Shown piece by piece: positions 1,978 to 52,163 of a stretch of 64,000 nt of DNA. This DNA is from Patescibacteria group bacterium (GTDB lineage Bacteria; Patescibacteriota; Minisyncoccia; UBA6257; 2-01-FULL-56-20), in NCBI GenBank assembly GCA_018971305.1, contig JAGXBC010000001.1:173956-237955 (forward strand). The letters run 5' to 3'. Each line of letters begins with the position of its first letter. Positions within the stretch are counted from its first letter, which is position 1. Below the pieces are notes generated by a model. It was not told the origin of the DNA, ran no database searches, and saw only the letters and a program-made list of their open reading frames with translations. The position numbers were made by a program, and so were the translations under genes.

Positions 1978-2051
1978 TTTAGATGTACCGTTTTAATCAA
2001 TATAACAAATGTCGCCGCATATCGGCAATATTTTGTTTTCTCTACCGCAAC

Positions 2052-2080
2052 CAAAAAGACCCCCGAAGGGGCCTTTTTGG
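2052..2080 (-). terminator. rho-independent terminator after the surface-protein gene
   Basis: AAAAAGACCCCCGAAGGGGCCTTTTTGG forms a GC hairpin flanked by an A-run and a T-run. Confidence 0.5.
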
Positions 2081-2124
2081 TTCATACGATCTGGCAGTCT
2101 CAAGCCGCCGAACCGTAAGGCAAA

Positions 2125-5100: not shown

Positions 5101-5520
5101 AGCGCGTGACTTTGCCCCGAAGTAACCGGCAGCCGGGCTAATGCCGTGAGCCGCCTGATACTTCGCAACAGCCGCCTTTGTTAAGGCACCGAAGTATGTT
5201 GATTCATGTCCCGGAGAACCCGCGCCGGACGCCGCAATCTGCGCGCCATTCGCATTCAAGAACTGCTGCAAGGCCTTAACATCGGCTCCGGAACTGCCCA
5301 CGGTGAGGTCGCGGGTATAGTTGTAAGAAGACGACATTGAAGAACCGCTGGCAGAGTTGAGCTGCGATTGGAGTTGCTGAATTTGCGTGAGCAACGCTGC
5401 GATCTGCGCCTGCAAGTCCGTAACGGACTGAGCAGAAGCAACCGGGAGAAGAGCGCCGGAGAACGTTATTAATGTCGTTCCCGCGAGCGCCAAAGAAACT
5501 AATTTCTTTGAGATATTCAT
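2125..5520 (-). CDS. large secreted/cell-surface protein with signal peptide, coiled-coil, peptidoglycan-binding-like domain and a long Ser/Thr/Gly/Ala-rich repetitive region
   Basis: 1131-aa ORF. The N-terminus MNISKKLVSLALAGTTLITFSGALLPVASAQS is a signal peptide. The LQAQIAALLTQIQQLQSQL segment is coiled-coil. ...LQQFLNANGAQIAASGAGSPGHESTYFGALTKAAVAKYQAAHGIS... resembles a PG_binding_1 domain. About 900 aa of low-complexity T/S/G/A/N-rich sequence follow. Confidence 0.8.
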   Translation of the reverse strand: MNISKKLVSLALAGTTLITFSGALLPVASAQSVTDLQAQIAALLTQIQQLQSQLNSASGSSMSSSYNYTRDLTVGSSGADVKALQQFLNANGAQIAASGAGSPGHESTYFGALTKAAVAKYQAAHGISPAAGYFGAKSRAYVASLSASTPSTSSTPSVPAPASGLVVSLSSQNPSAGALISSASTAAARVPVMAVNLTAGNSGAVTVSELKFNKTGVISDSSISGAYLVENGQVLYQYNSISNGVIDFAGLNLNVNAGATRTLWLAIDPSTGLTAGNTVGFAIAAASNVSATSGGAAVSASGAFPLSGNTFTVTTVTNPSIASLTITSSSIATTDTAGTQNNIVGSWNFSVSNSKVWLKGLKFTVIGSANNADLRNVKIMVNGTQAGTTLASVGADGTAYFDMSSNPGTLNTGSNNIQVYSDVMGSPNKNFQFEILNSYDLYAVDSQYNVPIAGSSNTGTQVSIQQGQITVSQAADTPTGNLAPGQSNVTLAKYTIYAAGEAVKVKFLTFKMTFGNSTTTLSNEVKNVALTDDAGGQVGTTINTPPSATTNTCDITVGGGSNTSYTGGVYTDCFGTGTSPINYIVPANTTRVLSIKADIQSGADFGTVVASLTGNTSNLQGLTSSASNSSGGATGSSLTLQSTQLTTAQNTALGNQTVASPSSNVKIGSYALTASSADGVTVSNLTVKAGATAFLSNLHVMINGSQFGSTQGLVSSGGSYSFSGTPFTVAKGGTTYVDVYADILSGAASVSPASTLSSCSGTGQTSYNALTCSSTAGQGITIAGQATVSVTADSSQAPAGQIVMGSSQNPLATFRFTETTNAENVKVTDLTVADTVSSTSTVKSTFSNLTLYNGSTAVGTAGSAVTSGTALWAWTFHFATPFVVPQANSISLTLKGDASSYASSGATDNANHQFNIANGSAVTALGATSNSTSSVSTTSAAGNTQTVLRSKLSFAATALGSTTGRSKSTSDNFATLSFSADSAGAVALNTMVVSFTGNAVSGTGFLDGIKILDENNQSIGTVQSTSSAATCQTVAAGGSGSCSVTFNFGSTSNGQQISAGSTRNWTLQVNDSKTQASTGQNVTSLAATVSTRSTDVLYTDGLDSAANSNITLPSSQLFPIQLNSASFAQGT

Positions 5521-5934
5521 TTAGTAAGTTTAATTTATTTTCGATTTAATTTATTTTATCGACCTGTTTTTGATTGGGTCGTCGACCTTTTTAATTTAAT
5601 TTGGAATCCACTGGCCTTCGTTTCGACCCCCATATCATCGGTGAGGACAATGTGCGGGGAACAAATAGCCGCGGAGTTGGTTTCTAATTATTAAAAAACT
5701 CGCTGTTCAAGGCGAGGCTGTCTAAGTTTAAAGATAAACCATACAACTATGACCAAAAAATATCATAGCCGCTAGCTTTTATCTTCGTGTCCGTTTTCAC
5801 GAACTGGTCCAGCCTCACACTGAACCTCTATTAAATTCTAGCAGAACCAAGAGCTAAAAGATGTGCATAAACCGACAGAATCAAGCTTTTGGTTAGCAAT
5901 ATATATAACGATGCTAAGGGCGAAAGGTTACCAA

Positions 5935-6615
5935 CTATTGTTGCCTACTTATCGTCCTATAGTAAGTAGACGGCCCACCATTTCCGGCCCTTTCTATGAG
6001 CCCCCGGGAAAGCAAATTTTGCATATCGTAACGCAACGTTCTTTCGCTAACACCAGGCAATATACCCTGTATTTCCTTCAATCGGCAATTGCCGTTTTGC
6101 CGTATTCTTTCCAATATTGCCGATTGCCGCATTTCCGATTTAATATAGTTGCCGCTTCCATTATCTAATTGACCATAATCAGAGTTATCCCGATTAACAG
6201 TGTTTTCAACGGTTAAATCTTTTGCCGTATTATCTTCAGTTGAATTAGTAATAGATGATTTATCGTATCCGGAAAATATATCATCCAATTTTATCTCATC
6301 TATTTTTGCCGGATTATCATATTCGGCAATTGCCGAATTTAGACCATATAATTCAGATATCACCTTATCAGAATTTGCCGGATGGAAAACCCCGACATCA
6401 GCTCCAAATCTTAGCAATCTTTCTAGGTTATCAGATGCCGAAAACATCGCAACCCGATCTTCGGAGGAAAATGCCCCCAAGACGATAAGCGCCGCGTCTT
6501 CCGCTTTATCCCTAAAACTTCCACTATTGACAGAGGACGCCATTCTCCAGACGGCATAGGCAACTTCATATGCTTTCTTTGTTAAAAACTTATCCTGATT
6601 ATTTATCCTGGACAT
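5935..6615 (-). CDS. putative transcriptional regulator with C-terminal DeoR-type winged HTH
   Basis: The C-terminus ...SAILERIRQNGNCRLKEIQGILPGVSERTLRYDMQNLLSRGLIERAG matches the DeoR/HTH_11-like pattern. A TTGACA-18-TATACT promoter lies upstream on the minus strand at 6630-6662. Confidence 0.5.
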   Translation of the reverse strand: MSRINNQDKFLTKKAYEVAYAVWRMASSVNSGSFRDKAEDAALIVLGAFSSEDRVAMFSASDNLERLLRFGADVGVFHPANSDKVISELYGLNSAIAEYDNPAKIDEIKLDDIFSGYDKSSITNSTEDNTAKDLTVENTVNRDNSDYGQLDNGSGNYIKSEMRQSAILERIRQNGNCRLKEIQGILPGVSERTLRYDMQNLLSRGLIERAGNGGPSTYYRTISRQQ

Positions 6616-7591: not shown

Positions 7592-8314
7592 TCACAAACC
7601 CCACTGCGCCAACCCTAAAATCACCACCAGGAATGAGAAAAATATGGAAAAAGAAATCAATACCTTATCTTTTATTAATATCCCAGCCGAATAATCGGCA
7701 GCCAGCTCCATAAGCATCGTAGCTGTTAAAAATACCAGGGCCGACTGATAAAAAAAGTTTATAGGCAGAAGGAGGGCGACAAGAGATATCTGCCAGATGA
7801 TAATTGCTGAAATGCCAGCTATTATAGACGGGGGTATTCGAGCGCCGCCCGATGAATCAGGACGGTCAGCAAACCGCAGGAATTCATTGATGAGGAAGAA
7901 AAAAACAGCGGCAATTACAATCATCCAAACAAATCCAGCCACCGTCCCCCAGTTGTCAAATTTTGCAAAGAACTTAATAAAAGTCAAAAACATAATTGCC
8001 AGAACCAAAATCTCGTGAGCGGATTTCCTTCCGATAAAAATCAGGTCTTTGATGCCAAGAATGAGATAGAAAACCAACGACAACAGCACTGCAAACGGCA
8101 ATCCCGCCGGTTCCGCAATAGAGAAAAAAATAAGCACTGCGAAAGGCAGGAGTAACTTGATCGGCCGGAAAAACGGGACAAAATACATATATAAAGCTAT
8201 GAGGAAGAAAATCCAGAATGGCAGAAAAAACCAAGCTGCGCCGAAAATTACAGCCTTCACAACGTGGGCACGCAAGGGAATGGCCTTTTTAATTGTCGTT
8301 ATAAATTTATCCAT
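7592..8314 (-). CDS. hypothetical polytopic membrane protein
   Basis: The ORF is open from 8404. The probable start is the internal Met of MDKFITTIKK. At least six hydrophobic helices follow. No recognisable family. Confidence 0.45.
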   Translation of the reverse strand: MDKFITTIKKAIPLRAHVVKAVIFGAAWFFLPFWIFFLIALYMYFVPFFRPIKLLLPFAVLIFFSIAEPAGLPFAVLLSLVFYLILGIKDLIFIGRKSAHEILVLAIMFLTFIKFFAKFDNWGTVAGFVWMIVIAAVFFFLINEFLRFADRPDSSGGARIPPSIIAGISAIIIWQISLVALLLPINFFYQSALVFLTATMLMELAADYSAGILIKDKVLISFSIFFSFLVVILGLAQWGL

Positions 8315-8494
8315 CCCGTTAAAAAATGAACTCCTTGGCTCTCGACAAGGGACTGCATATGGCAATTGCAACGTGCCGATAGTTAAATGCCAGCCGACGA
8401 GCAATATTTACAACCGGATTCATCTATATAAAAATACCCCTCTATTGAAGAGTTGTAAAATTAACGGTCCACCCGTGCACGATATGAATAAGAT

Positions 8495-11143
8495 CTAATT
8501 GAATACCAAAGAGTCAAGGCGGAAATTTACCTTTACCTTGCTGCCATCTTTCAGTTCCCCGCGGATAATCTTGTCTGCCAATTTATCCAAAATAACCTTC
8601 TGCATTAAGCGCTTAAGGGGGCGCGCTCCATATTCAGCGCTAAAACCTTCTTTAATAAGATATTCGCGGGCAGTTTCGTTCACATCAATTTTAATTTTAT
8701 GGGCATCAAGACGCTTCTGGATCATATCAATCTGGATATCAACTATTTTGCCCAAGTCCTCTTTATTTAGGGGGTTGAAAATCACGATCTCATCTATCCG
8801 GTTCAAAAATTCCGGCCGGAAGCTCTCCCGCAGTGATTCCATAACTTTTTCTTTATAGCCGCCATCCTCGCTATCGCGGCTTATTTCATTATTTGCTGCG
8901 CTGAATCCGAAACGAGACATACCCTTCAAATATTGGCTGCCGACATTTGAGGTCATAATGATTATGGCGTTCTTGAAGTTGACAACCTTGCCTTTGCCGT
9001 CGGTGATGCGCCCGTTATCTAAGATCTGTAGTAACAAATTGAAGACCTCCGGGTGGGCTTTTTCTATTTCATCAAAAAGTATCAAGCTGTATGGCCTGTG
9101 GCGCACTACTTCCGTAAGCTGCCCGCCTTCGTCATAACCGACATAACCCGGTGGCGCTCCAATCAAGCGGCTGGTGGCATGTCTCTCCATATATTCGGAC
9201 ATATCTATGCGCACAAGAGCTTTTTCATCGTTGAACATAAACTCGGCCAGTGCCTTAGCGAGCTCTGTCTTACCGACCCCGGTAGGACCAAGAAACATGA
9301 ATGAACCCAATGGACGATTCTCGTCAGAAAGGCCGGCTCGAGCCCGGCGTAAAGCGTTAGCCACGGCTTTTATGCCGTCCCCTTGGCCGACAACTCGGTT
9401 ATCCAATACATCTTCTATCCTCACGAGCTTGTCGCTTTCTGATTCCAGCATGCGCCGAAGAGGAATACCGGTCCAAACGGAAACCACGGCGGCGACATCC
9501 TCTTTATCCACCGATTCCTTAAGGAACGATTCGTCGGTTGATTTTTTACCCTTCTTGGCGCGAATAGCGCTGAAGTGTTTCTTTTCAAAAGCGGTGAAGT
9601 CTTTTTCGGATTGCGGCAGTTCTCCGTACATTATCTGCGCCGTACGCTCAAGGTTCCCTTCGCGCTCCGCAATTTCGGCTTCACGCTTAAGATTGTCAAC
9701 TTTTTGGCGGAGCTGATGCAGTGTTTCAAACTTGATTTTCTCGGAATGCCAACGCGCGGAAAGCTCGTCATTTGTTTCTTTAAGACCTTTAAGGCCTTTA
9801 TCAATTTCCTTAAGACGCCCGCTGTTGTTTTTTTCTCCCTCTTTACTAAGGGCTTGGCGTTCTACTTCCAAGCGCGTGATATCGCGGCGGATGCCGTCTA
9901 TCTCTTTCGGCAAGCTTTCCGTCTCCAACCTGCGGGCAGCAGCCGCTTCGTCTATCAAATCAACCGCTTTGTCCGGCAAAAATCTATCTGTAATATAGCG
10001 GGATGACAGATTTACCGCCTCAATTATAGCTTCATCCGATATCCGCAAACCGTGATGAATTTCGTATTTTTCCTTTAGGCCTCGCAAAATGGCGATGGAA
10101 TCTTCAATAGACGGCTCTTCAACTATAATCGGCTGAAACCTGCGCTCCAGTGCCGGATCTTTTTCTATATAGCGCTGATATTCGCGGATAGTCGTAGCTC
10201 CGATTGTGTGAAGCTCGCCGCGCGCCAAAGCCGGCTTTAAAAGATTAGAGGCATCTACCGCGCCTTCAGCGGCTCCCGCACCAACGATCGTGTGGATCTC
10301 GTCTATAAAAAGAATTATCTGTCCCGAAGCGTTTTTTATTTCATTAACGAAAGCCTTAAGGCGGTCTTCAAATTCTCCGCGGAATTTAGTACCGGCGATG
10401 AGCGACCCCAGATCTAACATCAAAATTTTCTTATCTTTAAGCGGCTCCGGTACGTCGCCGGAGACTATTCTTTGAGCAAGCCCCTCAACAATGGCGGTCT
10501 TCCCGACTCCGGGTTCTCCGATAAGCGCCGGGTTGTTCTTCGTGCGGCGAGAGAGAACCTGCATCACGCGTCGTAACTCTTCTTCGCGGCCGATGACCGG
10601 ATCAAGTTTTCCGGCCTTAGCTTTTTCGGTTATATCTATAGAATATTTTTCCAGAACCTGGAACTTGCTCTCTGGAGTTTCGTCGGTAATCCGCACGGAG
10701 CCCCTAAGCTGGGCCAATGTCCGCCAAACAGCTTCGCGGCGAACGGCAAACTGGTCTAAAACATTTTTTGCCGCCGAGGGAACCTCTAGAATGGCAAGAA
10801 GCATATGCTCGCAGGAAACAAATTCGTCTTTCTGTTGAGCGGCAACTTTTGCAGCCTGATCCAAAACCTTCATTAACTCCTGGGAAAGATAAAGCTGGCC
10901 TACCGTAGAATTGGCCACAAGCCGCGGCAAGCGGCTCAGTTCCAAATCAACGTTTTCTGCCAATTTTTCTACATTTATTCCTATCCTATTCAGGACAGGA
11001 ATAATTAGAGACGATGGGTCTTCTAATAGTGACGCCAAAAGGTGAAGCGCCTTAAGCTCCCCATGACTTTTCTTGGCCGCAAGTTCCTGGGCGTTCTGCA
11101 AGGCTTCCTGGGCTTTGATTGTGAAACGATGGAAGTTGGGCAT
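8495..11143 (-). CDS. clpB: ATP-dependent chaperone ClpB (Hsp100 disaggregase)
   Basis: 882 aa. Clp N-domain at the start ([22 protein letters not shown]...). Two AAA+ modules with Walker A motifs ([18 protein letters not shown]; [16 protein letters not shown]). A long coiled-coil middle domain lies between them. Confidence 0.95.
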
Positions 11144-11299: not shown

Positions 11300-12619
11300 C
11301 TATTGCACCGGCCGCTTCTCAAGTTTCACCGACAATACCATTTCCTTTCCATTACGATTTATTTTGATGGTTATCGCATCGCCGACAGAAAACTGAGAAA
11401 TGACGGCGCCAAGAGAATGGTCGCTGTCAATCTTCTGGTTATTAACCTGCAATATTATATCCTCGGCTTCAATGCCGGCTTTGTCTGCCGGAGAACCGAT
11501 AATAACTCCCGGACCGTCGCTTGAACCGCGGACCAGGGCACCATAATCAACGGCTAATTTCTGTGCTTTCGCTATGTCGGGGGTAACGACAATATACCTT
11601 ACGCCCAAATATGGCACAGAAATTTCTCCGCTCACTTTCACGGAACTTATATCCCGCTTCGCTCTGTTTATCGGAATAGCGAAACCGATGCTCTGAGCTC
11701 CCTGAGCTATGGCGGTATTTATGCCGATAACTTGTCCGCTCAAATTCAAAAGCGGTCCGCCGGAATTTCCCGGATTGATAGCGGCATCGGTCTGGATAAC
11801 ATTATCAATAGTTTCAGACCCCAAATCAGGACCGGAAGCCGTAACAGTACGCGCAAGGCCGGATATCACGCCAACGGAAACGGTGTTTCGGAATTCTCCG
11901 AGGGCGTTGCCGATAGCGATGGAAGTCTGGCCCAATTCAACCGCGTCGGAATCTCCGAGTTCAACGGTCGGCAAGCCATGCGCATCTATCTTGAGAACCG
12001 CCAAATCCTGGCTCGGGTCAACAGCCGAAATCTTCGCATTATATTTTTTCCCGTCATTCGTGAAAACCGTGTAAGATGCGGTCTTATCACCGGCAACATG
12101 CTTATTAGTCAGGATCAGGCCGTCGGAAGAAATGATAAATCCAGAACCTCCTCCGACTTCCTGGAGTTGAGTCTTGCCCGTATCGCAAGGCACGCTGAAC
12201 TGAGGGAGATCGTTTCCAAAAAACTGCTGGAATTCCGGCGGCAGATTGCCGAAAGAATTTTGCGGACAATTTTCTATTATCGGGACATTCTTGGAAATTG
12301 TAATGGAGACCACAGCCGGGGACGCTTTCTTAACAGCATCCACGACAGCTTTTTCGTAGTCAACGACCGGCTTATAGGGCGACACACTGTTGTTGTCCGT
12401 AGGCGGAACAGTGCCGGTAGCGTTACCTCCTCCGAACATCTGGGTGCTTGTGGATATTCCGCCCAAGAAGGGAGAAATAAGATTATTGAAAAAATCGTTA
12501 AAAAAATTGGCTTTGGCCGGCTGGGCATTGATAAATCCGCCGAAAAATAAGCCCGTGGCCAGCCCTAATGCCAAAAAACCGAGAAATTTTTTATTTTCCT
12601 TGAAAATTCCCATCTTCAA
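11300..12619 (-). CDS. HtrA/DegP-family trypsin-like serine protease with C-terminal PDZ domain
   Basis: N-terminal membrane anchor. Catalytic motifs are GSGFIISSDGLILTNKHV (His), DLAVLKID (Asp) and GNSGGPLLNLSGQVIGINTAI (Ser). A PDZ-like C-terminus follows. Confidence 0.9.
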   Translation of the reverse strand: MKMGIFKENKKFLGFLALGLATGLFFGGFINAQPAKANFFNDFFNNLISPFLGGISTSTQMFGGGNATGTVPPTDNNSVSPYKPVVDYEKAVVDAVKKASPAVVSITISKNVPIIENCPQNSFGNLPPEFQQFFGNDLPQFSVPCDTGKTQLQEVGGGSGFIISSDGLILTNKHVAGDKTASYTVFTNDGKKYNAKISAVDPSQDLAVLKIDAHGLPTVELGDSDAVELGQTSIAIGNALGEFRNTVSVGVISGLARTVTASGPDLGSETIDNVIQTDAAINPGNSGGPLLNLSGQVIGINTAIAQGAQSIGFAIPINRAKRDISSVKVSGEISVPYLGVRYIVVTPDIAKAQKLAVDYGALVRGSSDGPGVIIGSPADKAGIEAEDIILQVNNQKIDSDHSLGAVISQFSVGDAITIKINRNGKEMVLSVKLEKRPVQ

Positions 12620-41720: not shown

Positions 41721-41732
41721 CAATTCTGTGTC

Positions 41733-42049
41733 GGTGGAGATGGGCGGAATTGAACCGCCGTCTAAGGATTGCGCCGCTGAACCATCTACGAACGTATTTC
41801 AGTTAAGAACTGAACAAAAGCGATTCTAATTTTCGCTCCAATGCAGAATCATCCATCGGAACTACGCCTCCTTATATAAGACCGGTATTAACCTAAGAGG
41901 TCCAGATTAGCCGATCCTCCGGTGTTACGCGTAAGCGAATGCCGGAGCCGCAACTTTTGAGTTGGCAGTTATTGTTTTTTCGCGAGTTTAACGAGTCCGC
42001 CCTCGGTCCGCAAATTCAGAACGCATCCTTATCGAAGCCGATCATCCCC
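41733..42049 (-). ncRNA. ssrA: tmRNA (transfer-messenger RNA, SsrA)
   Basis: Minus-strand 5' end GGGGATGATCGGCTTCGATAAGGATGCG... 3' T-arm GGCGG-TTCAATT-CCGCC. Acceptor 3' strand CATCTCC+A+CC gives the G3.U wobble pair. The tag-reading region ...GCGAAAAAACAATAACT GCC AAC TCA AAA GTT GCG GCT CCG GCA TTC GCT TAC GCG TAA encodes ANSKVAAPAFAYA. Confidence 0.8.
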
Positions 42050-44877: not shown

Positions 44878-45342
44878 TCAGGCACGACGGCCATATCTCG
44901 CGGAAGGACCACGCATTCTGGCTCGCAAAAAGTCGTAGGCCTGCCTTAAGACCTTTTGGCTGTCTTTATACTTACCTAAAATTCTTTGGGCGTCCCTGAA
45001 TAAAAACCAGCCGTATCCTTGATGCTCAAAAGAAATTCTTACGTCTTTTTTGGAAGATTCCGCCAGATAAAAAATTACCACTTTAAATATGCTCTGCCCG
45101 GATTTTTTGAAGTAAAACCTCTCATAAGCCTGGAATCCCGGTATTAGGCGCAGGTCGTGCCCGGAAAGTCCGGCCTCCTCCCTCGTCTCGCGAAGCGCGG
45201 CCGCTAAACTCTCTTCTTCCGATTCAATATGCCCCTTGGGAAAATTCCAATAACTGCCACCGTGATATAGAATCAAAAACTTGGGACCTTCCTTGGTCCT
45301 CCTATAGGCGATTATTCCTGCCGATATCTCTTGTTTTGTCAT
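44878..45342 (-). CDS. NUDIX hydrolase
   Basis: Nudix box GHIESEEESLAAALRETREEAGL (GX5EX7REUXEEXGU). Confidence 0.85.
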   Translation of the reverse strand: MTKQEISAGIIAYRRTKEGPKFLILYHGGSYWNFPKGHIESEEESLAAALRETREEAGLSGHDLRLIPGFQAYERFYFKKSGQSIFKVVIFYLAESSKKDVRISFEHQGYGWFLFRDAQRILGKYKDSQKVLRQAYDFLRARMRGPSARYGRRA

Positions 45343-47069
45343 TTTAGAAATTCTAACATTTTTGCCACGGGCCAGGCATTAATAATGTCTTTTCTCTCGG
45401 CCCAACCGCGACGCGCCTGCGCAATGCCATATTCCAGATAAGGAAAGTGCGCGGGCGAATGAGCATCGGAGTCGATGGACATTTTCACCCCCATCTCCAC
45501 GCACTTTCTAATATGGTCGTCTTTCAAATCTAAGCGGTCGGGGTAGGCATCTATTTCCATTATTGTTCCGGTTTTTTTAGCCGCCTTTATTAATTCATCC
45601 ATATCAACTTCATAAGCTTCGCGGCGATTAATAATGCGTCCTGTTGGATGGAAAATAATATCAACATTTTTATTTTCCATCGCCCGCTTAATACGCGCGG
45701 TCTGCTCAGCGCGCGGCAAGTTAAAATAGGAGTGGACCGAGGCACCAACGACATCCAGCTTTGCCAAAATATTGTCCGGCAGATCAAGTGATCCGTCCTT
45801 TAAAATATCGCACTCGCTACCCTTCAGAATTTTGATTTTTCCGGCAAACTTCTTGTTTAGACGATCTATCTCGGCCATCTGCTTTAGAATCCTTTTTTCG
45901 TCCAGACCGTGCGTCATAGCCAGGCGCTTTGTGTGATCGGTTATAACTATATATTCAAGTCCATTTTTTCTAGCCGCAAGCGCCATATTCTCTATAGAAG
46001 CAGAACCGTCCGTCCATTCCGTCTGCACCTGCAAATCGCCACGGAGATCGTTATAGCCGACAAGCACCGGCAGGGCGTGTTTCCTAGCCAGCTCTATCTC
46101 GCCAGTGTTCTCGCGCATCTCCGGCTCAATATAATCCATACCGAGAGCTTTATATAGCTCTTCTTCGTTTTTGCCGGCAACCTGTTTTTTCCTTTTAAAC
46201 AATCCGTATTCGTTCAATTTATAACCCTTAGAGATGGCGATTTTGCGCAGAGCTACGTTATGGTCTTTGGAGCCGGTAAAATAATTAAGCGCCGCGCCAT
46301 ACGAGTTCGCCCTAACTACACGCAGATCAATATCCATTCCTGATTTTATTTTAATGGAAGATTTGGTCGCTCCATGCGCATGAACTTGTGCCACCTCCGG
46401 CATCTCAACAAAATAATCCATTATCGGCGCCGGTTTTTTTGAAACTACGAGAATGTCCGCATCTCCTATTGTTTCCTTGCTACGCCGAGTTGATCCGGCG
46501 ACTATTGTTTTTTCCACGCCCGGTAAAGAACGCAGACGCTCTTCAATCGTTTCTATAGTGGGCATAACAGAACCCAACACGAACCGCCCGCCCGATTTCT
46601 TTACGAATTCAATTCCCTTTAGGATATTCTCTTCGCTTTTCTTTCCAAAACCATCAAGGCGAGAAATTTTTCCCGCACGCGCCGCTTTTTCCAAATCAGC
46701 AATACCCTTAATTCCTAACTTTTGATAAAGCTTTTTTATGGACTTCGGCCCAAGACCCTCTATCCCCCCGAACTCTTCTAGCCTAACGGGTGTTTTCTTT
46801 TTTATATCTTCGTAATATTTACAACGCCCGGTTTTGATTATCTCCTCTATTTTTTCTGCGATAGACACGCCAACTCCAGGAATTTCTTCAAGCGCCTTTA
46901 GTCCGCCTTTTTCATAAATATCCCTCGCTTCTTCTTCCAGCCCGCCTATAATCTCCGCGACTTTTTCGTAAGCGCGCGGCTTAAAGGGCACGTCCTGCAT
47001 TTCCAGGTAAATAGATATCTCCGAGAGTATTTCCGCGATAATTCTATTAGTAATCTGATCTCTGGACAT
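45339..47069 (-). CDS. DNA polymerase X family protein with C-terminal PHP phosphoesterase domain (PolX)
   Basis: N-terminal HhH/Pol-beta-like domains (start MSRDQITNRIIAEILSEIS...). C-terminal PHP histidinol-phosphatase-like region (HTKRLAMTHG, HSYFN, DSDAHS). Confidence 0.85.
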   Translation of the reverse strand: MSRDQITNRIIAEILSEISIYLEMQDVPFKPRAYEKVAEIIGGLEEEARDIYEKGGLKALEEIPGVGVSIAEKIEEIIKTGRCKYYEDIKKKTPVRLEEFGGIEGLGPKSIKKLYQKLGIKGIADLEKAARAGKISRLDGFGKKSEENILKGIEFVKKSGGRFVLGSVMPTIETIEERLRSLPGVEKTIVAGSTRRSKETIGDADILVVSKKPAPIMDYFVEMPEVAQVHAHGATKSSIKIKSGMDIDLRVVRANSYGAALNYFTGSKDHNVALRKIAISKGYKLNEYGLFKRKKQVAGKNEEELYKALGMDYIEPEMRENTGEIELARKHALPVLVGYNDLRGDLQVQTEWTDGSASIENMALAARKNGLEYIVITDHTKRLAMTHGLDEKRILKQMAEIDRLNKKFAGKIKILKGSECDILKDGSLDLPDNILAKLDVVGASVHSYFNLPRAEQTARIKRAMENKNVDIIFHPTGRIINRREAYEVDMDELIKAAKKTGTIMEIDAYPDRLDLKDDHIRKCVEMGVKMSIDSDAHSPAHFPYLEYGIAQARRGWAERKDIINAWPVAKMLEFLK

Positions 47070-47076
47070 TGTCGGT

Positions 47077-47757
47077 TTAACGATTTTTGTCCAAAGGCAC
47101 ACTTAGTTTCGCGGAAGGACCATCCTTAGGGATAACAGTGGCTAGGGGGGTTGTTTGTTTCGGCAAAATAAGGTCTGGGGCCATTATCAGCAAAACCGCC
47201 GATAACGCAGAAAATATTCCGGCGAAGATGAAAACCGCCGGGAACCCCCAGGAGTTAGCGATAATTCCCCCGACAAATCCGCTTACACCGGCCGAAACTC
47301 CGGCCGCCGTACTATCCAATGCCCAATCAAAAGAAATCCTGTCTTTATCCAAGTGCCGCGAGAAAATAGCCGGCCAGGAGGCGGCGTAGAGAGCGAAACC
47401 AATAGCGTGAATAATCTGAACCAAATATAATTGCCAGATCTCTTTTACGAGAGCGAAAGAAATTGCCGAAAAGGCGGCAAGCAATAAGCCAAATATCAGA
47501 GCGTAGAAATCATCTTTCTCTCCCGGTGTCTTATCTAAATAATTGGCGAGTGGAAGTTGTAGCAACGATTTGAGAAGCCAATAAATAGCGGCCGAGGCCC
47601 CAACGGTTATCAGAGTGGCTCCGGCTATATTCTGAATTATAAATATGGAAAATACGGGTTCGATCAAACCCCAGCCGGCCAAAAGGGTTAAATCAGACAA
47701 AATAAAATACTTTACGAGGCGGCCAACTTTTATGTCCAGGCTTATTCTTATTTTCAT
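47077..47757 (-). CDS. 6-TM MFS-like half-size membrane protein (possibly a truncated transporter)
   Basis: 226 aa, six hydrophobic helices. Resembles the C-terminal half of an MFS permease. No N-terminal half in either flank. Confidence 0.4.
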   Translation of the reverse strand: MKIRISLDIKVGRLVKYFILSDLTLLAGWGLIEPVFSIFIIQNIAGATLITVGASAAIYWLLKSLLQLPLANYLDKTPGEKDDFYALIFGLLLAAFSAISFALVKEIWQLYLVQIIHAIGFALYAASWPAIFSRHLDKDRISFDWALDSTAAGVSAGVSGFVGGIIANSWGFPAVFIFAGIFSALSAVLLIMAPDLILPKQTTPLATVIPKDGPSAKLSVPLDKNR

Positions 47758-47860
47758 CCCGTTAGAAAATTAAAGCCTGCGCCGGTCGACTCCGGGCCCC
47801 CGATTACTTGGTCGGTTGTTTTATCGTTACCTATTAGCATTATTAATTTTCTAACTGGAT

Positions 47861-50413
47861 TCATGCCTTTGTTTCGCCGATCTCATTAAATTGTATTTCT
47901 TCTCCGACAGAAGAAACCTTTATATGGCTGCCGCGATTTACTGTTTTTTTCAATATCTTCTGCGCGAGCGGGGCACGAAGCTTTTCATCTATCACTCGGC
48001 GCAGAGGCCTCGCACCGAATGCAGGATCATAACCAAGCTTAACAAGCTCACTAATCAGAGAGTCGTCGAATTCCATCTTTATACCCTGCTCGGCTACCAT
48101 GGCCGCGACATCCTGCAGATTAATTGAGACTATCTTAGCCAGATCTACCGGAAGAAGATTTTTAAAAATAACGATGCGCGAGAATCTATTGATAAGTTCC
48201 GGCTTAAAAACATCGGTTAATCTTTTCTTTAGATATTCCGATATTTCCGACATGGACTGTCCTTTATTCAGAGCATCGTTGATGATATCCGAATGGGCGT
48301 TGGACGTGGCGATAATAACCGTATTTTGAAAATCAACCACTCTTCCCAAGTTGTCGGTCAGGCGGCCATCATCCAAAACCTGCAGAAAAAGGTTGAGTAT
48401 GTCCGGAAATGCTTTTTCAAACTCATCCAAAAGCACCAAGCTGTATGGTTTCTGTAAAATCGCATCTGTGAGCGTACCGTTCACGCTGCCATCCGGTGAA
48501 CCGATAAATCTGTAGAAACTTTGCTTGTCTTGGTATTCCGTCATATCAAAACGCACCATCGCTTTTTCCGAGCCGAACTGAACGCGCGCCAGAATCTTAG
48601 CGAGCTCGGTTTTGCCGACGCCGGTAGGGCCAACAAAGAGAAAACTGGAAATCGGGCCGCCGGCGCGAGAAAGGCCGCTTCTATATTCTCGTAAAGATTC
48701 GGATACGGCGCGCACGGCTTCTTCCTGATCGATTAGACGTTCGTGAATAATATTCTCCAGGTTCAAAAGTTGTTTAGCTTCGTCACCGGACGCCTCGTGG
48801 ATAGGAATATTCACCTTAGCCTCTGCCACCCTGATAACCTGCTCCGGGCCAAGAACTTTTTCTCCCCTTCTTTTTACGTCTACTACAGCGCTTTTCAATA
48901 GTTCCTCGGCGCTTGCCGGTAAAAATTTATTGCGAAAATATTTTTTAGCGAGAATCACGGATTTCTTTACGGCGCCGAAACTAATGGTAACGCCAAACTG
49001 CTTCTCCAACAGCAACCCATCGTAACTCAAGATTTTTTCGGCTTCGTCTTCCTTTATTTCATTAACTCTGATAATTTCAAATGCGCCGGCGAAATCGCTT
49101 CTCGGCTCAATGAACTGCTTAAACTCTTTGGGATATGTAGCACCAATTATAGGAAAAGAATTATTCATAATTATCGGCATCAGCTCATCGGCGGCGGAAA
49201 GGTATGCCGTACCCGAGGTCCGCACTAAATTATGAATGTCCGCGATATAGATTATAATATTGCCGGCAGTTATGATCTCCTCAATAATTTTCTTCAGCCG
49301 CTGATTCAACTCTTCCGGCGGCGCTCCCGCAACCAAGCTACCAAGCTCCAATCCCACAAGCCTCTTGTCGAAAAGTGCCTGTGGCACTTCGTCTTTGGAT
49401 AATTTATAAGCCAAGTGGGCAACCAATGTTTCCTTGCCTATACCGGATTCACCTATCAGCAAGGCATTAGGGTTTATCGGCCGAGCCAATGTATCTATTA
49501 ATCGTTCCAATTCTTCTTTATGACCGATAAGAAACCCCGCGCGTCCCTGCCTGGCTAAATCGGTGAAATCGGTGGAATATCTATCTAGAGTAGGAGTCGG
49601 TCTTGAAGTCCAATCCCTGTTCATGATTCTGTGCCTTGACCGAACCGGTCCCGACACAAAACCGGCTACGCTGCCGGGCAAACGTCCGAACGAAGAACTC
49701 TTACTTAAGGAGCTGAAAATCAATGCTCTTTCCAGGTCCCCGGCATCAATCCCGAAGATTCCGAATATCCTCTTCAAAGATTCGTTTTCTATTAGGGGGA
49801 GGGAAGAAAATAGGTCGCTTAATTCTATGAATGCGTGTCCCGACTCCAACGCCCGATTCAGAGCGCTAACCGTTAAAAGTTCCACGTTCCCGAGGAGAGA
49901 TTCTTGTGTCGGACCCACTCCTTCGCCCCTGCCGCTGGCGGATAAAAATTCTTCGATTTTCTGCCTGAATTCATCAAAGGGAATATCAAGGCGCCTCAAG
50001 CCGCTTTCTATTTCAGAAAAATTAAGAAGCTGGCGCGCCAGTTCCAAAAAGAAATCGTGCCGAGTGATTAGGCTACTATCGAAAGATTTTTCTATTATCC
50101 CGAATGCCTTCGGCCTAAGAAATAAGGCCAGATTAACCCTTCCCTTTCTGGGGAATTCTGTAAGCGGCTTATCCGCCTGCCTCAGGTGCATTACTCTGTC
50201 TAGTAAGAATAAAATCAGAAATATACCGAAGAAACGCATCCAGGTTAAATCAGACAAAATAAATGTCGCGGTTGCGGCGGCAAGAACCAGGTATCCAATG
50301 TAGCTCAAAATCCTCACCAAAAATCTGCCTGGCCAGCTCATCCGCAGGCGCGGGTCGTTGAAGGAAAGTTTTAATTCCTGAGCTCTTTTTGTTTTAGAAA
50401 TTTCTTGCTGCAT
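47861..50413 (-). CDS. membrane-anchored ClpB/ClpC-like double-AAA+ protein with degenerate D1 ATPase domain
   Basis: N-terminal TM helices (FLVRILSYIGYLVLAAATATFIL; FFGIFLILFLL). D1 Walker A LLIGESGIGKETLV has K-E in place of K-T. D1 Walker B IIIYIADIH has A-D in place of D-E. D2 is intact: [38 protein letters not shown]. Confidence 0.75.
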   Translation of the reverse strand: MQQEISKTKRAQELKLSFNDPRLRMSWPGRFLVRILSYIGYLVLAAATATFILSDLTWMRFFGIFLILFLLDRVMHLRQADKPLTEFPRKGRVNLALFLRPKAFGIIEKSFDSSLITRHDFFLELARQLLNFSEIESGLRRLDIPFDEFRQKIEEFLSASGRGEGVGPTQESLLGNVELLTVSALNRALESGHAFIELSDLFSSLPLIENESLKRIFGIFGIDAGDLERALIFSSLSKSSSFGRLPGSVAGFVSGPVRSRHRIMNRDWTSRPTPTLDRYSTDFTDLARQGRAGFLIGHKEELERLIDTLARPINPNALLIGESGIGKETLVAHLAYKLSKDEVPQALFDKRLVGLELGSLVAGAPPEELNQRLKKIIEEIITAGNIIIYIADIHNLVRTSGTAYLSAADELMPIIMNNSFPIIGATYPKEFKQFIEPRSDFAGAFEIIRVNEIKEDEAEKILSYDGLLLEKQFGVTISFGAVKKSVILAKKYFRNKFLPASAEELLKSAVVDVKRRGEKVLGPEQVIRVAEAKVNIPIHEASGDEAKQLLNLENIIHERLIDQEEAVRAVSESLREYRSGLSRAGGPISSFLFVGPTGVGKTELAKILARVQFGSEKAMVRFDMTEYQDKQSFYRFIGSPDGSVNGTLTDAILQKPYSLVLLDEFEKAFPDILNLFLQVLDDGRLTDNLGRVVDFQNTVIIATSNAHSDIINDALNKGQSMSEISEYLKKRLTDVFKPELINRFSRIVIFKNLLPVDLAKIVSINLQDVAAMVAEQGIKMEFDDSLISELVKLGYDPAFGARPLRRVIDEKLRAPLAQKILKKTVNRGSHIKVSSVGEEIQFNEIGETKA

Positions 50414-50741
50414 AGATTAAGATGGCTGCGGGAATCAAAAGCCAGATACCATACATGGCCAAAAATATCGCCGCCACAAACATATAAATAACACCGCCTA
50501 TTAAAATTCTCCCGGAGCGGAATATAAAACCAAGCAGTCTGCCGACGACCGTGTAGTCTTTATATAGCGGTTGAAACAGATAATGGAAGGTTATCCTGAT
50601 GGCAAAGGTTTTATCCAGATTCTCCAGGGTGGAAATGAATTTGTGGGCGAACGAACGCGTGCCGTCAACGTACCAATGATGGAAAAAATCTCCAAGGCGG
50701 TAGAAAAACCTGGCCGTCAGATATGTTAGGGCGAAGTTCAT
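50394..50741 (-). CDS. small membrane protein, hypothetical (overlaps the start of the Clp-like gene)
   Basis: 115 aa. Two or three hydrophobic helices. Its stop overlaps the downstream start by 20 nt. Confidence 0.4.
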   Translation of the reverse strand: MNFALTYLTARFFYRLGDFFHHWYVDGTRSFAHKFISTLENLDKTFAIRITFHYLFQPLYKDYTVVGRLLGFIFRSGRILIGGVIYMFVAAIFLAMYGIWLLIPAAILIYAARNF

Positions 50742-50791
50742 ATATTTACATTATAGCAACAAAAAGGGACAGATATAATCTGTCCCCGGTA

Positions 50792-51382
50792 TTATTCGGA
50801 TAAGGGCAACCGATATCTTCCGGTCTCCTCATTTAGGCGAAAACCCGAGCGTTTTGCGGTAACATCGTAGTGCATATACATACGCTCCCTAACCCCACCG
50901 GTTTCCAACTTATACCAAGGACTTTGTTCGGAGCTAATAATTTCAATCAGTCGGACACCATAAGATTTTGACCAATCAACAACTATCGCTACCAACATTC
51001 TTTCCCACCTGATTGCACTAAGATAATCCTTCACAAAAGGAGATCCCTGTATCTGTTGTATTGTTAGTGTCTTGGAATTACAATCAAAATCGAAACCAAT
51101 CAAGGCTATCGGAGATGCCATCAATAAATTTTTTCTGACGACAAGTAAAAAGTTATACTCGGCATCAAGATATATAGCCGGAGAAACCAATCCAGAAACG
51201 AAGCTTGCGGAATAATAATTGGATTTGCCTGCAGTGCCCCGCCTCTCGGAAAAGAGACGGTAATGGTATGCCTGCGATTGGCCAGGTTTCAAAAAACGCT
51301 TCAGATAGAAACCAATATCAATATCATCAGCCTCTCTATAGACATCAATGTTATTGAGACCAGCCAAAACATTCTTCACCAA
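50792..51382 (-). CDS. hypothetical protein
   Basis: 196-aa ORF with no family recognised. Confidence 0.4.
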   Translation of the reverse strand: MVKNVLAGLNNIDVYREADDIDIGFYLKRFLKPGQSQAYHYRLFSERRGTAGKSNYYSASFVSGLVSPAIYLDAEYNFLLVVRKNLLMASPIALIGFDFDCNSKTLTIQQIQGSPFVKDYLSAIRWERMLVAIVVDWSKSYGVRLIEIISSEQSPWYKLETGGVRERMYMHYDVTAKRSGFRLNEETGRYRLPLSE

Positions 51383-51461
51383 GAGTCACCCCCCGTCCGC
51401 AAAAAGATAATTCAATAAACTTTCTATTTTATAAACCTAGTTATGAATAAAGTAAAGACTC

Positions 51462-52163
51462 TTAAAACAATTTCTGCGGCGGTTTTTTTGTTGCGATTTT
51501 TTTGGCTTTAGCCTCCGGCATGGGCGGCATAGCGGTCAGCGCCTCGGCGACTAATTCCCCTGAAACGACTTTCGGCAGCTTCTTCATGTCTTCGCGGAAA
51601 GTTTCCATCATCTGCGTGGAGCGCAATGCCGCGGCCGGATGATAAACCGGGAAAATCAAGCGGTCGTCTATCTTAAAGACACGTCCGTGGTCGCGCGTAA
51701 TCTTCGCAAGCGGCAAGAAATAATTCATTGAGAAGCGGCCGAGGCAAACTATAACTTTCGGATTTATAATGTCTATCTGCCTCGTAAGGTATGGCTTATA
51801 TTTTTCTATTTCTTCTGGCAGAGGGTCGCGGTTGTCTGGCGGTCGGCGCTTAACTATATTTGTAATATAAACGTCTTTCCGCTCCCAGCCAATTTCTTGT
51901 ATGAGTTTATCCAAAAGCTGTCCGCCCCGCCCGACAAACGGGCGGCCCAAACGGTCCTCGTTGAATCCTGGCGCTTCCCCTACAAACATAACTCGGCAAT
52001 CCGGATTGCCTTCGCCAAAAACAAGATTTGATTCGCGTAGCGGCAACGAGACATTGGCGATAATCTCTTTTTCTAAGTCCCTAAGCGCTCCTGATTTTTC
52101 CATATCCATATTATATATCAACAACCCAAATAAACTTATTGCCATCAAAAAACCGCCCCTCAC
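51462..52163 (-). CDS. uracil-DNA glycosylase, family 4 (UdgA-type)
   Basis: GEAPGFNEDRLGRPFVGRGGQLLDKLI... matches the family-4 UDG signature. Lys-rich C-terminal tail. Confidence 0.8.
   Translation of the reverse strand: MRGGFLMAISLFGLLIYNMDMEKSGALRDLEKEIIANVSLPLRESNLVFGEGNPDCRVMFVGEAPGFNEDRLGRPFVGRGGQLLDKLIQEIGWERKDVYITNIVKRRPPDNRDPLPEEIEKYKPYLTRQIDIINPKVIVCLGRFSMNYFLPLAKITRDHGRVFKIDDRLIFPVYHPAAALRSTQMMETFREDMKKLPKVVSGELVAEALTAMPPMPEAKAKKIATKKPPQKLF

Follow-up and report, generated by a model that had tools for sequence, protein, structure and literature searches.

What does a two-ring Clp/Hsp100 ATPase do when it appears to be held at a membrane, has kept only one of its two ATPase sites and has lost the tyrosine loops of its pore? 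In textbooks, Hsp100/Clp machines exemplify how polypeptides are threaded at the expense of ATP by tyrosine pore loops. The question is raised by two overlapping genes in a stretch of 64,000 nucleotides (hereafter the window) from contig JAGXBC010000001.1 of a Patescibacteria group bacterium. The larger gene encodes an 850-aa divergent Clp/Hsp100 protein (the ATPase), and the smaller one, directly 5' of it, a 115-aa protein (the partner). An earlier note on this DNA, made without database searches, had described the two open reading frames (ORFs), with the small gene overlapping the start of the large one. Both were recovered on the minus strand where it had placed them; they overlap by 20 nt, the stop codon of the small ORF lying inside the start of the large one. 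The reading set out here, to which we give an even chance, is that the pair forms a Patescibacteria-specific, ClpP-independent, membrane-tethered remodelling complex that is powered by the second AAA+ module of the ATPase, depends on the small protein as an obligate partner and is probably not a canonical threading unfoldase. The coordinates of all features are collected in Table 1.

The ATPase consists, in this order, of a hydrophobic hairpin, a likely diverged Clp_N domain, a degenerate first AAA+ module (D1), an intact second AAA+ module (D2) and a D2-small domain. Pfam assigned AAA_2 (residues 587-746, E 1.2e-51), ClpB_D2-small (E 2.2e-22) and AAA_lid_9, and the two tandem AAA+ modules with their D2-small domain are those of the class I (two-ring) Clp/Hsp100 proteins. 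The best NCBIfam models were ClpB, ClpA, ClpK, ClpV and ClpG, each of which scored far under its cutoff. The score was 483.4 bits for TIGR03346 (ClpB; cutoff 1232.1), 433.8 bits for TIGR02639 (ClpA; cutoff 993) and 392.9 bits for TIGR03345 (ClpV/TssH; cutoff 884.95); the neighbouring genes encode a uracil-DNA glycosylase (UDG), a major facilitator superfamily (MFS) protein, PolX and a Nudix protein, so that there is no type VI secretion context for the last of these. In HMMER, D2 of Thermus thermophilus ClpB gave 291 bits against the ATPase, and the top structural match in Foldseek was a full-length ClpC (E 1e-51, 800-840 columns aligned). Neither the Pfam nor the NCBIfam scan found a peptidase domain in the ATPase, such as the M41 domain of FtsH-type proteins. 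The other Clp gene of the window (8495-11143, minus strand), which the earlier note had called a canonical ClpB with the ATPase as its divergent paralog, matches TIGR03346 end to end with 1229.5 bits (cutoff 1232.1), as compared with 483 bits for the ATPase. Because a genuine ClpB is thus present in the window and the ATPase lies far below all cutoffs, the view of the latter as a divergent paralog holds. The ATPase belongs to the Clp/Hsp100 superfamily, yet it fails the defining tests of ClpA, ClpB, ClpC and ClpV, and it is best classed as a member of a distinct Hsp100 subfamily with an obligate partner that is specific to bacteria of the candidate phyla radiation (CPR). A full-text literature search gave no report of a bacterial Hsp100 from Patescibacteria that is anchored in the membrane or devoid of the pore loops.

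Two sets of homologs were used to distinguish features of the family from those of the window protein, a close set of 120 proteins with 61-81% identity to the window ATPase and a distant set of 45 representatives with 32-52% identity. The register of D1 was taken from HMMER alignments to T. thermophilus ClpB and Bacillus subtilis ClpC and from a MAFFT alignment to the ClpB of the window; these three independent alignments were concordant, which rules out misaligned D1 motifs. The replacement of Thr by Glu in the D1 Walker A motif and of Asp-Glu by Ala-Asp in Walker B, from which the earlier note had concluded that D1 is probably dead, are accordingly real, and they are family-wide, GxxGxGKE and YIP[D/N/E]IH predominating in the close set. 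The position that reads GATT in canonical proteins is GATY in the ATPase; the second Thr of GATT serves as the D1 sensor-1 in Escherichia coli ClpB. The set of catalytic D1 residues found in class I Clp/Hsp100 proteins (Walker A/B, sensor, Arg fingers) is incomplete and, with both Walker motifs altered and both Arg fingers gone, D1 is catalytically degenerate. In the distant set the final residue of the D1 P-loop is E, D, T, S, K, R, Q or G, the Lys is gone in about eight of the 45 proteins, the Walker B Asp is nearly always Pro, and the Arg fingers are kept in none. The D2 motifs of the same 45 proteins are close to invariant (Walker A in 41, Walker B in 37), and the other changes are conservative except in one representative (P0341, GPIGVGKKE/LLNNLEKA). 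From this drift of D1 beside a nearly invariant D2 it would follow that D1 is an old pseudo-ATPase, the degeneration of which was ancient and progressive, and that D2 is the only credible motor.

Regarding D2 of the window protein, Walker A (residues 595-603), Walker B (661-668), sensor-1 (ATSN) and the Arg finger (NR) show little or no variation across the family. The earlier description of D2 as canonical therefore stands for the motifs of ATP hydrolysis; it does not stand for the pore loop, which is truncated and lacks the Tyr. ClpB grips its substrate via K250-Y251-R252 of D1 and via Y653/V654 in the GYVG loop of D2 (PMC6546751). In the family the D1 loop reads VAGAPPEEL and the canonical GYVGYEEGG of D2 is reduced to a shortened, variable G-x-x-x-G, in the context IGSPDG-x-x-x-GALTD. 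Tyr, Phe or Trp was found in the canonical pore loops of neither D1 nor D2 in any of the 120 close homologs; among the distant representatives two have an aromatic residue in the D2 tip and 43 of 45 fit the aromatic-free pattern. The aromatic pore-1 loops of the class I proteins (KYR, GYVG) are thus missing from both modules. In the AlphaFold2 (AF2) model, residues 638-646 form a short loop between two helices, and residues 643-645 at its tip are the least conserved positions within an otherwise more than 95% conserved block; such variability would be untypical of a substrate-gripping element. To judge from its motifs, D2 appears to be catalytically canonical, but mechanically not. A Lon-like register with F636-I-G as the aromatic-hydrophobic (Ar/Phi) pair was considered and set aside, as it requires two indels instead of one and as AF2 places F636 inside a helix (residues 630-637); we keep it as a caveat only.

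The suggestion that the protein is a membrane-associated unfoldase or extractor presumes a threading motor, and with the gripping aromatics absent from all 120 close homologs it is not supported in that form; it is possible, but not favoured. Stated as a rival to the reading given above, it is the main one, although we consider it unlikely: a processive extractor or unfoldase of membrane proteins, comparable to Msp1 or to an FtsH without its protease, in which a ring under the membrane would pull transmembrane (TM) client proteins, possibly delivered by the partner, through its channel by means of non-aromatic contacts, made by the secondary channel loop D2', by what is left of the D2 loop and by F636. 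The membrane-anchored geometry would set the entrance of the pore at the membrane, the ATPase site of D2 is intact, and the D2' loop (TEYQDKQS, corresponding to residues 636-646 of ClpB) is conserved; F636, in place of a Leu in ClpB, lies just before the D2 pore loop. Pex1/Pex6 furthermore provides a precedent for a dead D1 ring that is compatible with D2-driven threading (PMC9265785). Against all this, the canonical Ar/Phi or KYR pore loops are lost throughout the close set and the D2 tip is variable, whereas these Tyr residues are required by every well-studied threading Hsp100 (PMC6546751). With no gripping loops, classical hand-over-hand threading is unlikely.

Two further elements of the known families are missing. 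ClpA aligns to the ATPase in a single stretch (residues 275-834 to 168-734 of ClpA), whereas ClpB and ClpC align in two pieces that break at their middle domains (M-domains), the ClpB alignment skipping ClpB residues ~420-522. The ATPase therefore has no M-domain, that is, it lacks the long coiled coil in the small subdomain of D1 that characterizes ClpB/Hsp104, and without it there is no coupling to DnaK of the ClpB kind. At the site of the ClpP-docking loop, the HMMER alignment shows a 7-residue gap exactly opposite KYVGF of B. subtilis ClpC. The [IVL]G[FL] tripeptide is missing from the conserved replacement, SNAHSDIINxAL, in the 120 close homologs, in which SNAHSD..N is invariant. The absence of both elements, as proposed in the earlier note, is borne out, and without a docking loop the ATPase would not feed ClpP. 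A tblastn search for ClpP, ClpX and FtsH gave no match within the 64 kb of the window, a result that does not extend to the whole genome. It is nevertheless as 'ATP-dependent Clp protease ATP-binding subunit ClpA/ClpC' that the source annotations name the family. Taken at its word, this name would assign the ATPase to the ClpP protease as a normal unfoldase subunit of the ClpA/ClpC type, and the end-to-end alignment of ClpA over D1-D2 and the full-length ClpC as top structural match agree with it. The deletion at the docking loop without any [IVL]G[FL], scores far under the cutoffs (434 versus 993 for ClpA, 483 versus 1232 for ClpB), the dead D1 and the missing pore-loop Tyr residues speak against it. 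We consider such a function extremely improbable and the name a misnomer.

The hydrophobic hairpin of the N-terminal region comprises a first segment of 20 charge-free residues (35-54) and a second segment of 11 (61-71), or of 16 if R60 is ignored (56-71), which ends at the invariant D72. In 119 of the 120 close homologs a 19-residue Kyte-Doolittle window of at least 1.6 occurs within residues 1-110, and the remainder of the protein stays under this threshold (median 1.31). AF2 predicts helices over residues 27-53 and 57-75 with a per-residue confidence (pLDDT) of ~85-90. A membrane-type N-terminus is therefore a property of the family. Of the TM helices postulated in the earlier note, the hydrophobic segments are present, but the second is short. 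The flanking charges argue that both ends of the hairpin are cytoplasmic, which would fit cytoplasmic AAA+ rings.

Between the hairpin and D1 lies a domain of eight helices that the earlier note had overlooked. Pfam Clp_N matches six of 16 N-termini of the family (best E 2.4e-5), with no match to the window protein itself; the family profile of the N-terminus gave weak matches to the N-domains of ClpC and ClpA in the PDB (E 0.002-0.2), and an hhalign comparison of the N-terminal profile with the N-domain of the ClpB of the window was not significant (probability 0.5%). On this weak-to-moderate evidence, residues 101-241 are likely a diverged Clp_N domain. It is joined to D1 by a linker, the last 14 residues of which (RHRIMNRAWTSRPTP, residues 261-274, window 49592-49633, minus strand) are nearly invariant and family-specific, with R262, N265, R266, W268, T269, R271, T273 and P274 as invariant positions. 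The pLDDT is below 50 for residues 240-269, and the last few residues of RHRIMNRAWTSRPTP lie just past that segment. The corresponding linker of canonical Clp proteins is variable. RHRIMNRAWTSRPTP is a candidate site at which the partner or an adjacent subunit could dock.

The partner had no match in Pfam, NCBIfam or PADLOC, and every one of its 213 homologs is named 'hypothetical'. AF2 models it (mean pLDDT 83.6) with helices at residues 3-46 and 48-53, a loop at 54-64 that contains PLYKDY, and a helix of 49 residues at 65-113. The Kyte-Doolittle profile peaks at 2.39, and the hydropathy over the anchor was also computed as a family average. The anchor could be one tilted span, or a span with a short second segment after W100/P104. 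Residues 1-75 are predicted to be cytoplasmic from R75 and R78, which precede the hydrophobic stretch, by the positive-inside rule. Y7, R11, R15, F19, F20, W23, Y24, D43, P58, L59, D62 and R75 are invariant. The mean column identity is 62% for the partner and 67% for the ATPase, and so high a conservation of so small a protein suggests extensive protein contacts. A Foldseek search of the PDB with the partner returned nothing below E 0.8, as is expected of a simple helical hairpin.

The gene pair itself is conserved. The N-terminal module of the ATPase matched at least 319 species-level genomes, 80 loci of which were fetched. A partner homolog lies directly upstream of the ATPase gene in 79 of them, and the remaining locus has no upstream DNA, i.e., the pair is present in all 79 testable loci; a conserved pair in related genomes was what the earlier note had proposed to look for. 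The two genes are on the same strand in all 77 loci in which both were identified; the ATPase ORF is uncalled in the other two. The ATPase has a conserved DPR motif near residue 20, and the stop codon of the partner lies a median of 22 nt 5' of the codons for this motif; the two genes therefore overlap or abut in general. Of the ATPases examined, the two that diverge most (32% and 36% identity) also have an upstream gene, for a protein of 118 or 114 aa, which overlaps by 4 and 17 nt and matches the partner profile at E 3e-27 and 2e-31, respectively.

A search of 1.84 billion representative proteins with the profile of the N-terminal module yielded 521 matches, the complete ones of ~780-860 aa. 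The shorter matches look like contig fragments, and the module seems to be confined to ATPases of ~780-860 aa and to occur in no other type of protein. All matches of the family are from metagenome-assembled genomes of Patescibacteria, which are ultra-small bacteria, of the Paceibacteria/Parcubacteria type; among the labels are Paceibacteria/Paceibacterota, Parcubacteria, Liptonbacteria, Wolfebacteria, Harrisonbacteria and Minisyncoccia. Many loci with the pair (L008, L009, L012, L016 and others) are titled 'uncultured Candidatus Saccharibacteria bacterium', which looks like a generic or mistaken label on a Paceibacteria-type pair. For CPR bacteria of the Paceibacteria type the pair seems to be a core feature that is specific to the lineage and, judged by its conservation, under strong purifying selection. 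The same data bear on the idea that the ATPase is a decaying, non-functional paralog of ClpB or ClpC and the small ORF a product of chance, an idea prompted by the loss of several catalytic and mechanical motifs. Against it, the motifs of D2 stay invariant over an identity range of 32-81% among the members, both proteins keep the column identities given above, and the pair occurs in at least 319 species-level genomes. These conservation data effectively refute decay, and we give it a negligible probability.

The genes around the pair are conserved as well. The order is that of a permease-like membrane protein, a family-4 UDG, the partner, the ATPase, in part of the loci a half-size MFS protein, PolX, a Nudix protein and the ribosomal proteins L20/L35; the part that runs from UDG to Nudix and on to L20/L35 (window 44878-52163, minus strand) is shared by most of the 80 loci and by the member at 32% identity. 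A membrane AAA+ pair is thus found embedded among genes of the base-excision-repair type. This recurrent order, together with pore loops that are polar and non-aromatic, would suit a role in nucleic-acid metabolism or uptake at the membrane, in which DNA or RNA instead of protein would pass a polar channel free of aromatics. Against this, basic loops and a DNA-binding domain are both missing; these reduced genomes broadly keep the order of unrelated housekeeping genes, of which L20 and L35 beside Nudix are an example, and in the window a terminator and a -10-like element part the pair from the upstream gene. We regard a nucleic-acid function, a link to DNA repair included, as very unlikely and read the neighbourhood as the generally conserved gene order of these reduced genomes. 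A defence system was considered as well and rejected, as PADLOC gave only generic matches of the ClpB-D2 type (PDC-M37B, DolB) and none for the partner; the universal single-copy housekeeping synteny also speaks against it.

Regarding the boundary of the two-gene unit, the terminator call places a hairpin at 50765-50787, which closes the preceding gene, and TGCTATAAT, read from the sequence after it, resembles an extended -10 element (hexamer at 50750-50755); 8 nt separate this hexamer from the start codon (ATG) of the partner. The promoter scan, which demands a -35 element, missed this hexamer, and TGCTATAAT is proposed as a putative promoter from its sequence and position. The preceding gene is an ORF of 196 aa (50792-51382, minus strand) between the UDG gene and the partner gene, which has its own terminator-like hairpin at its end. 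Pfam, NCBIfam and PADLOC gave no match for it, and all 80 related loci are without a homolog, which rules it out as a third component; it looks like a genome-specific insertion in an otherwise conserved block. On the other side of the pair, the 226-aa MFS-type protein (47077-47757, minus strand) covers only the N-terminal half of MFS_1 (positions 8-172 of 347). The 3' end of its gene is overlapped by the start of the PolX gene, and homologs occur in 44 of the 80 related loci, which suggests a conserved transporter of half size rather than a truncation confined to this locus.

The anatomy of the ATPase and of its partner is solid; their function we infer. In the proposed mechanism the ATPase would assemble into a double ring like that of ClpA, D1 providing a structural pseudo-ATPase tier and D2 the sole motor. 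The hairpins and the C-terminal anchor of the partner would hold the N-domain/D1 face at the inner side of the membrane, and the aromatic-rich cytoplasmic helices of the partner would bind the N-terminal region or the invariant linker. The partner would then be a stoichiometric subunit, acting as anchor, adaptor or regulator. ATP turnover in D2 would remodel the conformation of clients associated with the membrane, or else of the partner platform, without ClpP, without DnaK coupling and probably without Tyr-mediated processive hand-over-hand threading, by a logic nearer to that of Torsin-cofactor or Bcs1-type machines than to that of ClpB/ClpC. The ATPase probably works unlike any ClpB/ClpC-type machine studied so far. 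A more specific form of the idea, which we put forward only tentatively, is that of an Hsp100 that has abandoned threading altogether: a hexamer seated on a platform of its own hairpins and six copies of the partner, which would use ATP to switch or remodel this platform or its lipids and proteins.

Several points weigh against the remodelling complex as proposed. The conserved D2' loop and F636 leave some polypeptide translocation possible. The GxxGxGK of D1 is invariant in the close subfamily, and D1 may thus bind nucleotide without hydrolyzing it. The shortness of the second hydrophobic segment (11-16 residues) makes a re-entrant or monotopic arrangement possible. The conserved neighbours UDG, PolX and Nudix give no pointer to membrane proteostasis. 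Finally, the oligomeric state, the membrane insertion and the binding of the partner are all predicted, the insertion from hydropathy, flanking charges and AF2 helices.

Table 1. Features of the ATPase and partner genes. Coordinates are those of the window; residues are those of the protein concerned.
Feature	Residues	Coordinates	Strand	Description
ATPase gene		47861..50413	-	850-aa divergent Clp/Hsp100 protein; from ORF list, Pfam, NCBIfam and HMMER
ClpB_D2-small domain	757-833	47915..48145	-	Sensor-2 GARPLRR at 800-806, near-invariant
D2 AAA+ module	545-750	48164..48781	-	Pfam AAA_2; intact ATPase site
Site of the ClpP-docking loop of ClpC/ClpA	704-730	48224..48304	-	Deletion and conserved SNAHSDIIN segment
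D2 pore loop IGSPDGSVNGTLTD	637-650	48464..48505	-	Four residues shorter than that of ClpB; without Tyr-Val; variable tip 643-645
D1 AAA+ module	275-520	48854..49591	-	Aligns to D1 of ClpB, ClpC and ClpA; AAA_lid_9 at 455-520
D1 Arg-finger site DFAGAFEII	440-448	49070..49096	-	ERRFQ of ClpB replaced by AGAFE; both Arg lost
D1 Walker B IIIYIADIH	386-394	49232..49258	-	Opposite IILFIDEIH; Asp to Ala (Pro in most members), catalytic Glu to Asp
D1 pore loop VAGAPPEELNQRL	361-373	49295..49333	-	KYR clamp replaced by APP; one residue shorter
D1 Walker A GESGIGKE	321-328	49430..49453	-	Opposite GEPGVGKT; Thr to Glu
Linker	242-274	49592..49690	-	Predicted disordered; C-terminal end is RHRIMNRAWTSRPTP
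Eight-helix domain	101-241	49691..50113	-	From AF2, Pfam, profile matches and Foldseek; likely diverged Clp_N
Hydrophobic helical hairpin	35-71	50201..50311	-	From hydropathy and AF2
Conserved Arg-rich motif	14-34	50312..50374	-	YFDDPRLRMTxxGRxxVR; four conserved Arg; predicted cytoplasmic
Partner gene		50394..50741	-	115-aa protein, unassigned to any family; directly 5' of the ATPase gene
Partner, hydrophobic helix	76-112	50406..50516	-	37 residues; putative membrane anchor
Partner, aromatic-rich helical part	1-75	50517..50741	-	Motifs FFHHWY and PLYKDY; predicted cytoplasmic
Upstream boundary of the two-gene unit		50750..50787	-	Terminator call and hexamer read from the sequence

Some other features of the window may be recorded here. 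The ClpB gene adjoins a gene for an HtrA-like protease with Trypsin_2 and PDZ domains (11300-12619, minus strand), and on its other flank lies a gene for a very hydrophobic protein of 270 aa without a family match (7592-8404, minus strand). A tmRNA gene is located at 41732-42049 (minus strand; Rfam, 121 bits); the tag peptide given by ARAGORN is ANSKVAAPAFAYA, which ends in AYA and not in the common LAA. The G+C content is 0.55 and 0.50 in the region 2001-6000, compared with ~0.45 elsewhere; Rfam assigned neither rRNA nor any other RNA family to this region.

The interest of the pair lies in a widespread and conserved subfamily with a pristine D2 site that has nonetheless parted with the tyrosine loops of both modules, with catalysis in D1, with the M-domain and with the ClpP loop, and has gained a predicted membrane anchor and an obligate small partner. 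Such a family would show either how a ring functions without the canonical grip or that Hsp100 rings have been reused as non-threading membrane switches, an idea so far based mainly on the eukaryotic Torsins. Should threading indeed have been abandoned, the pair would represent the Torsin-cofactor principle in prokaryotes and would be a housekeeping machine confined to CPR bacteria of the Paceibacteria type, the membrane biology of which is little explored.

Among known systems, ClpA/ClpC share with the ATPase the order D1-D2-D2-small, which in the ATPase is preceded by what is likely a diverged Clp_N domain, and ClpA likewise has no long M-domain. The ATPase differs from them by its membrane hairpin, its dead D1, the missing pore-loop Tyr residues, the deletion at the docking loop, scores of less than half of the cutoffs, and a small obligate membrane protein as partner in the place of ClpS or MecA. 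ClpB/Hsp104 give the highest sequence scores, mainly via D2, and are likewise independent of ClpP, but the ATPase has neither the M-domain (the DnaK-coupling element) nor the pore-loop Tyr, the D1 activity or the soluble N-terminus. FtsH, Msp1/ATAD1 and Bcs1 resemble the ATPase in that an N-terminal membrane anchor, in the ATPase a predicted one, sets the entrance of the ring at the membrane surface; unlike it, they have a single AAA ring of another clade. FtsH moreover carries a protease domain, and FtsH and Msp1 have aromatic pore loops; none of the three is known to have a small partner of the 115-aa kind.

Two precedents for parts of the proposed design are eukaryotic, and we regard them as analogy, not as membership. 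Pex1/Pex6 combines an ATPase-dead D1 with a D2 motor and a tail-anchored tether that is perhaps engaged in the pore (PMC9265785). The ATPase likewise has a dead D1 tier and a D2 motor, and contact of the N-domain with a small, C-terminally anchored helical protein, as with Pex15/PEX26, is proposed for it; Pex1/Pex6 differs in being a heterohexamer of the classical AAA clade with aromatic D2 loops, which threads its substrate and has no TM segment of its own. Torsin lacks aromatic pore loops, is associated with membranes and relies on transmembrane cofactors (PMC5425593). Torsin-LAP1/LULL1 shares with the pair the Clp/Hsp100-related AAA+ fold, the N-terminal hydrophobic segment, the absence of aromatic pore loops and a TM partner; an active and a degenerate AAA+ module are combined in both, in trans in Torsin-LAP1 and in cis, through D1, in the ATPase. 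Torsin has a single AAA+ module without an Arg finger of its own and is luminal in the eukaryotic endoplasmic reticulum and nuclear envelope, whereas the ATPase is bacterial, predicted to be cytoplasmic, and has two AAA+ modules with the D2 Arg finger (NR) and the sensor-2 motif conserved. Cofactors of the LAP1 type are AAA-like, whereas the 115-aa partner is a two-helix protein without an AAA-like fold.

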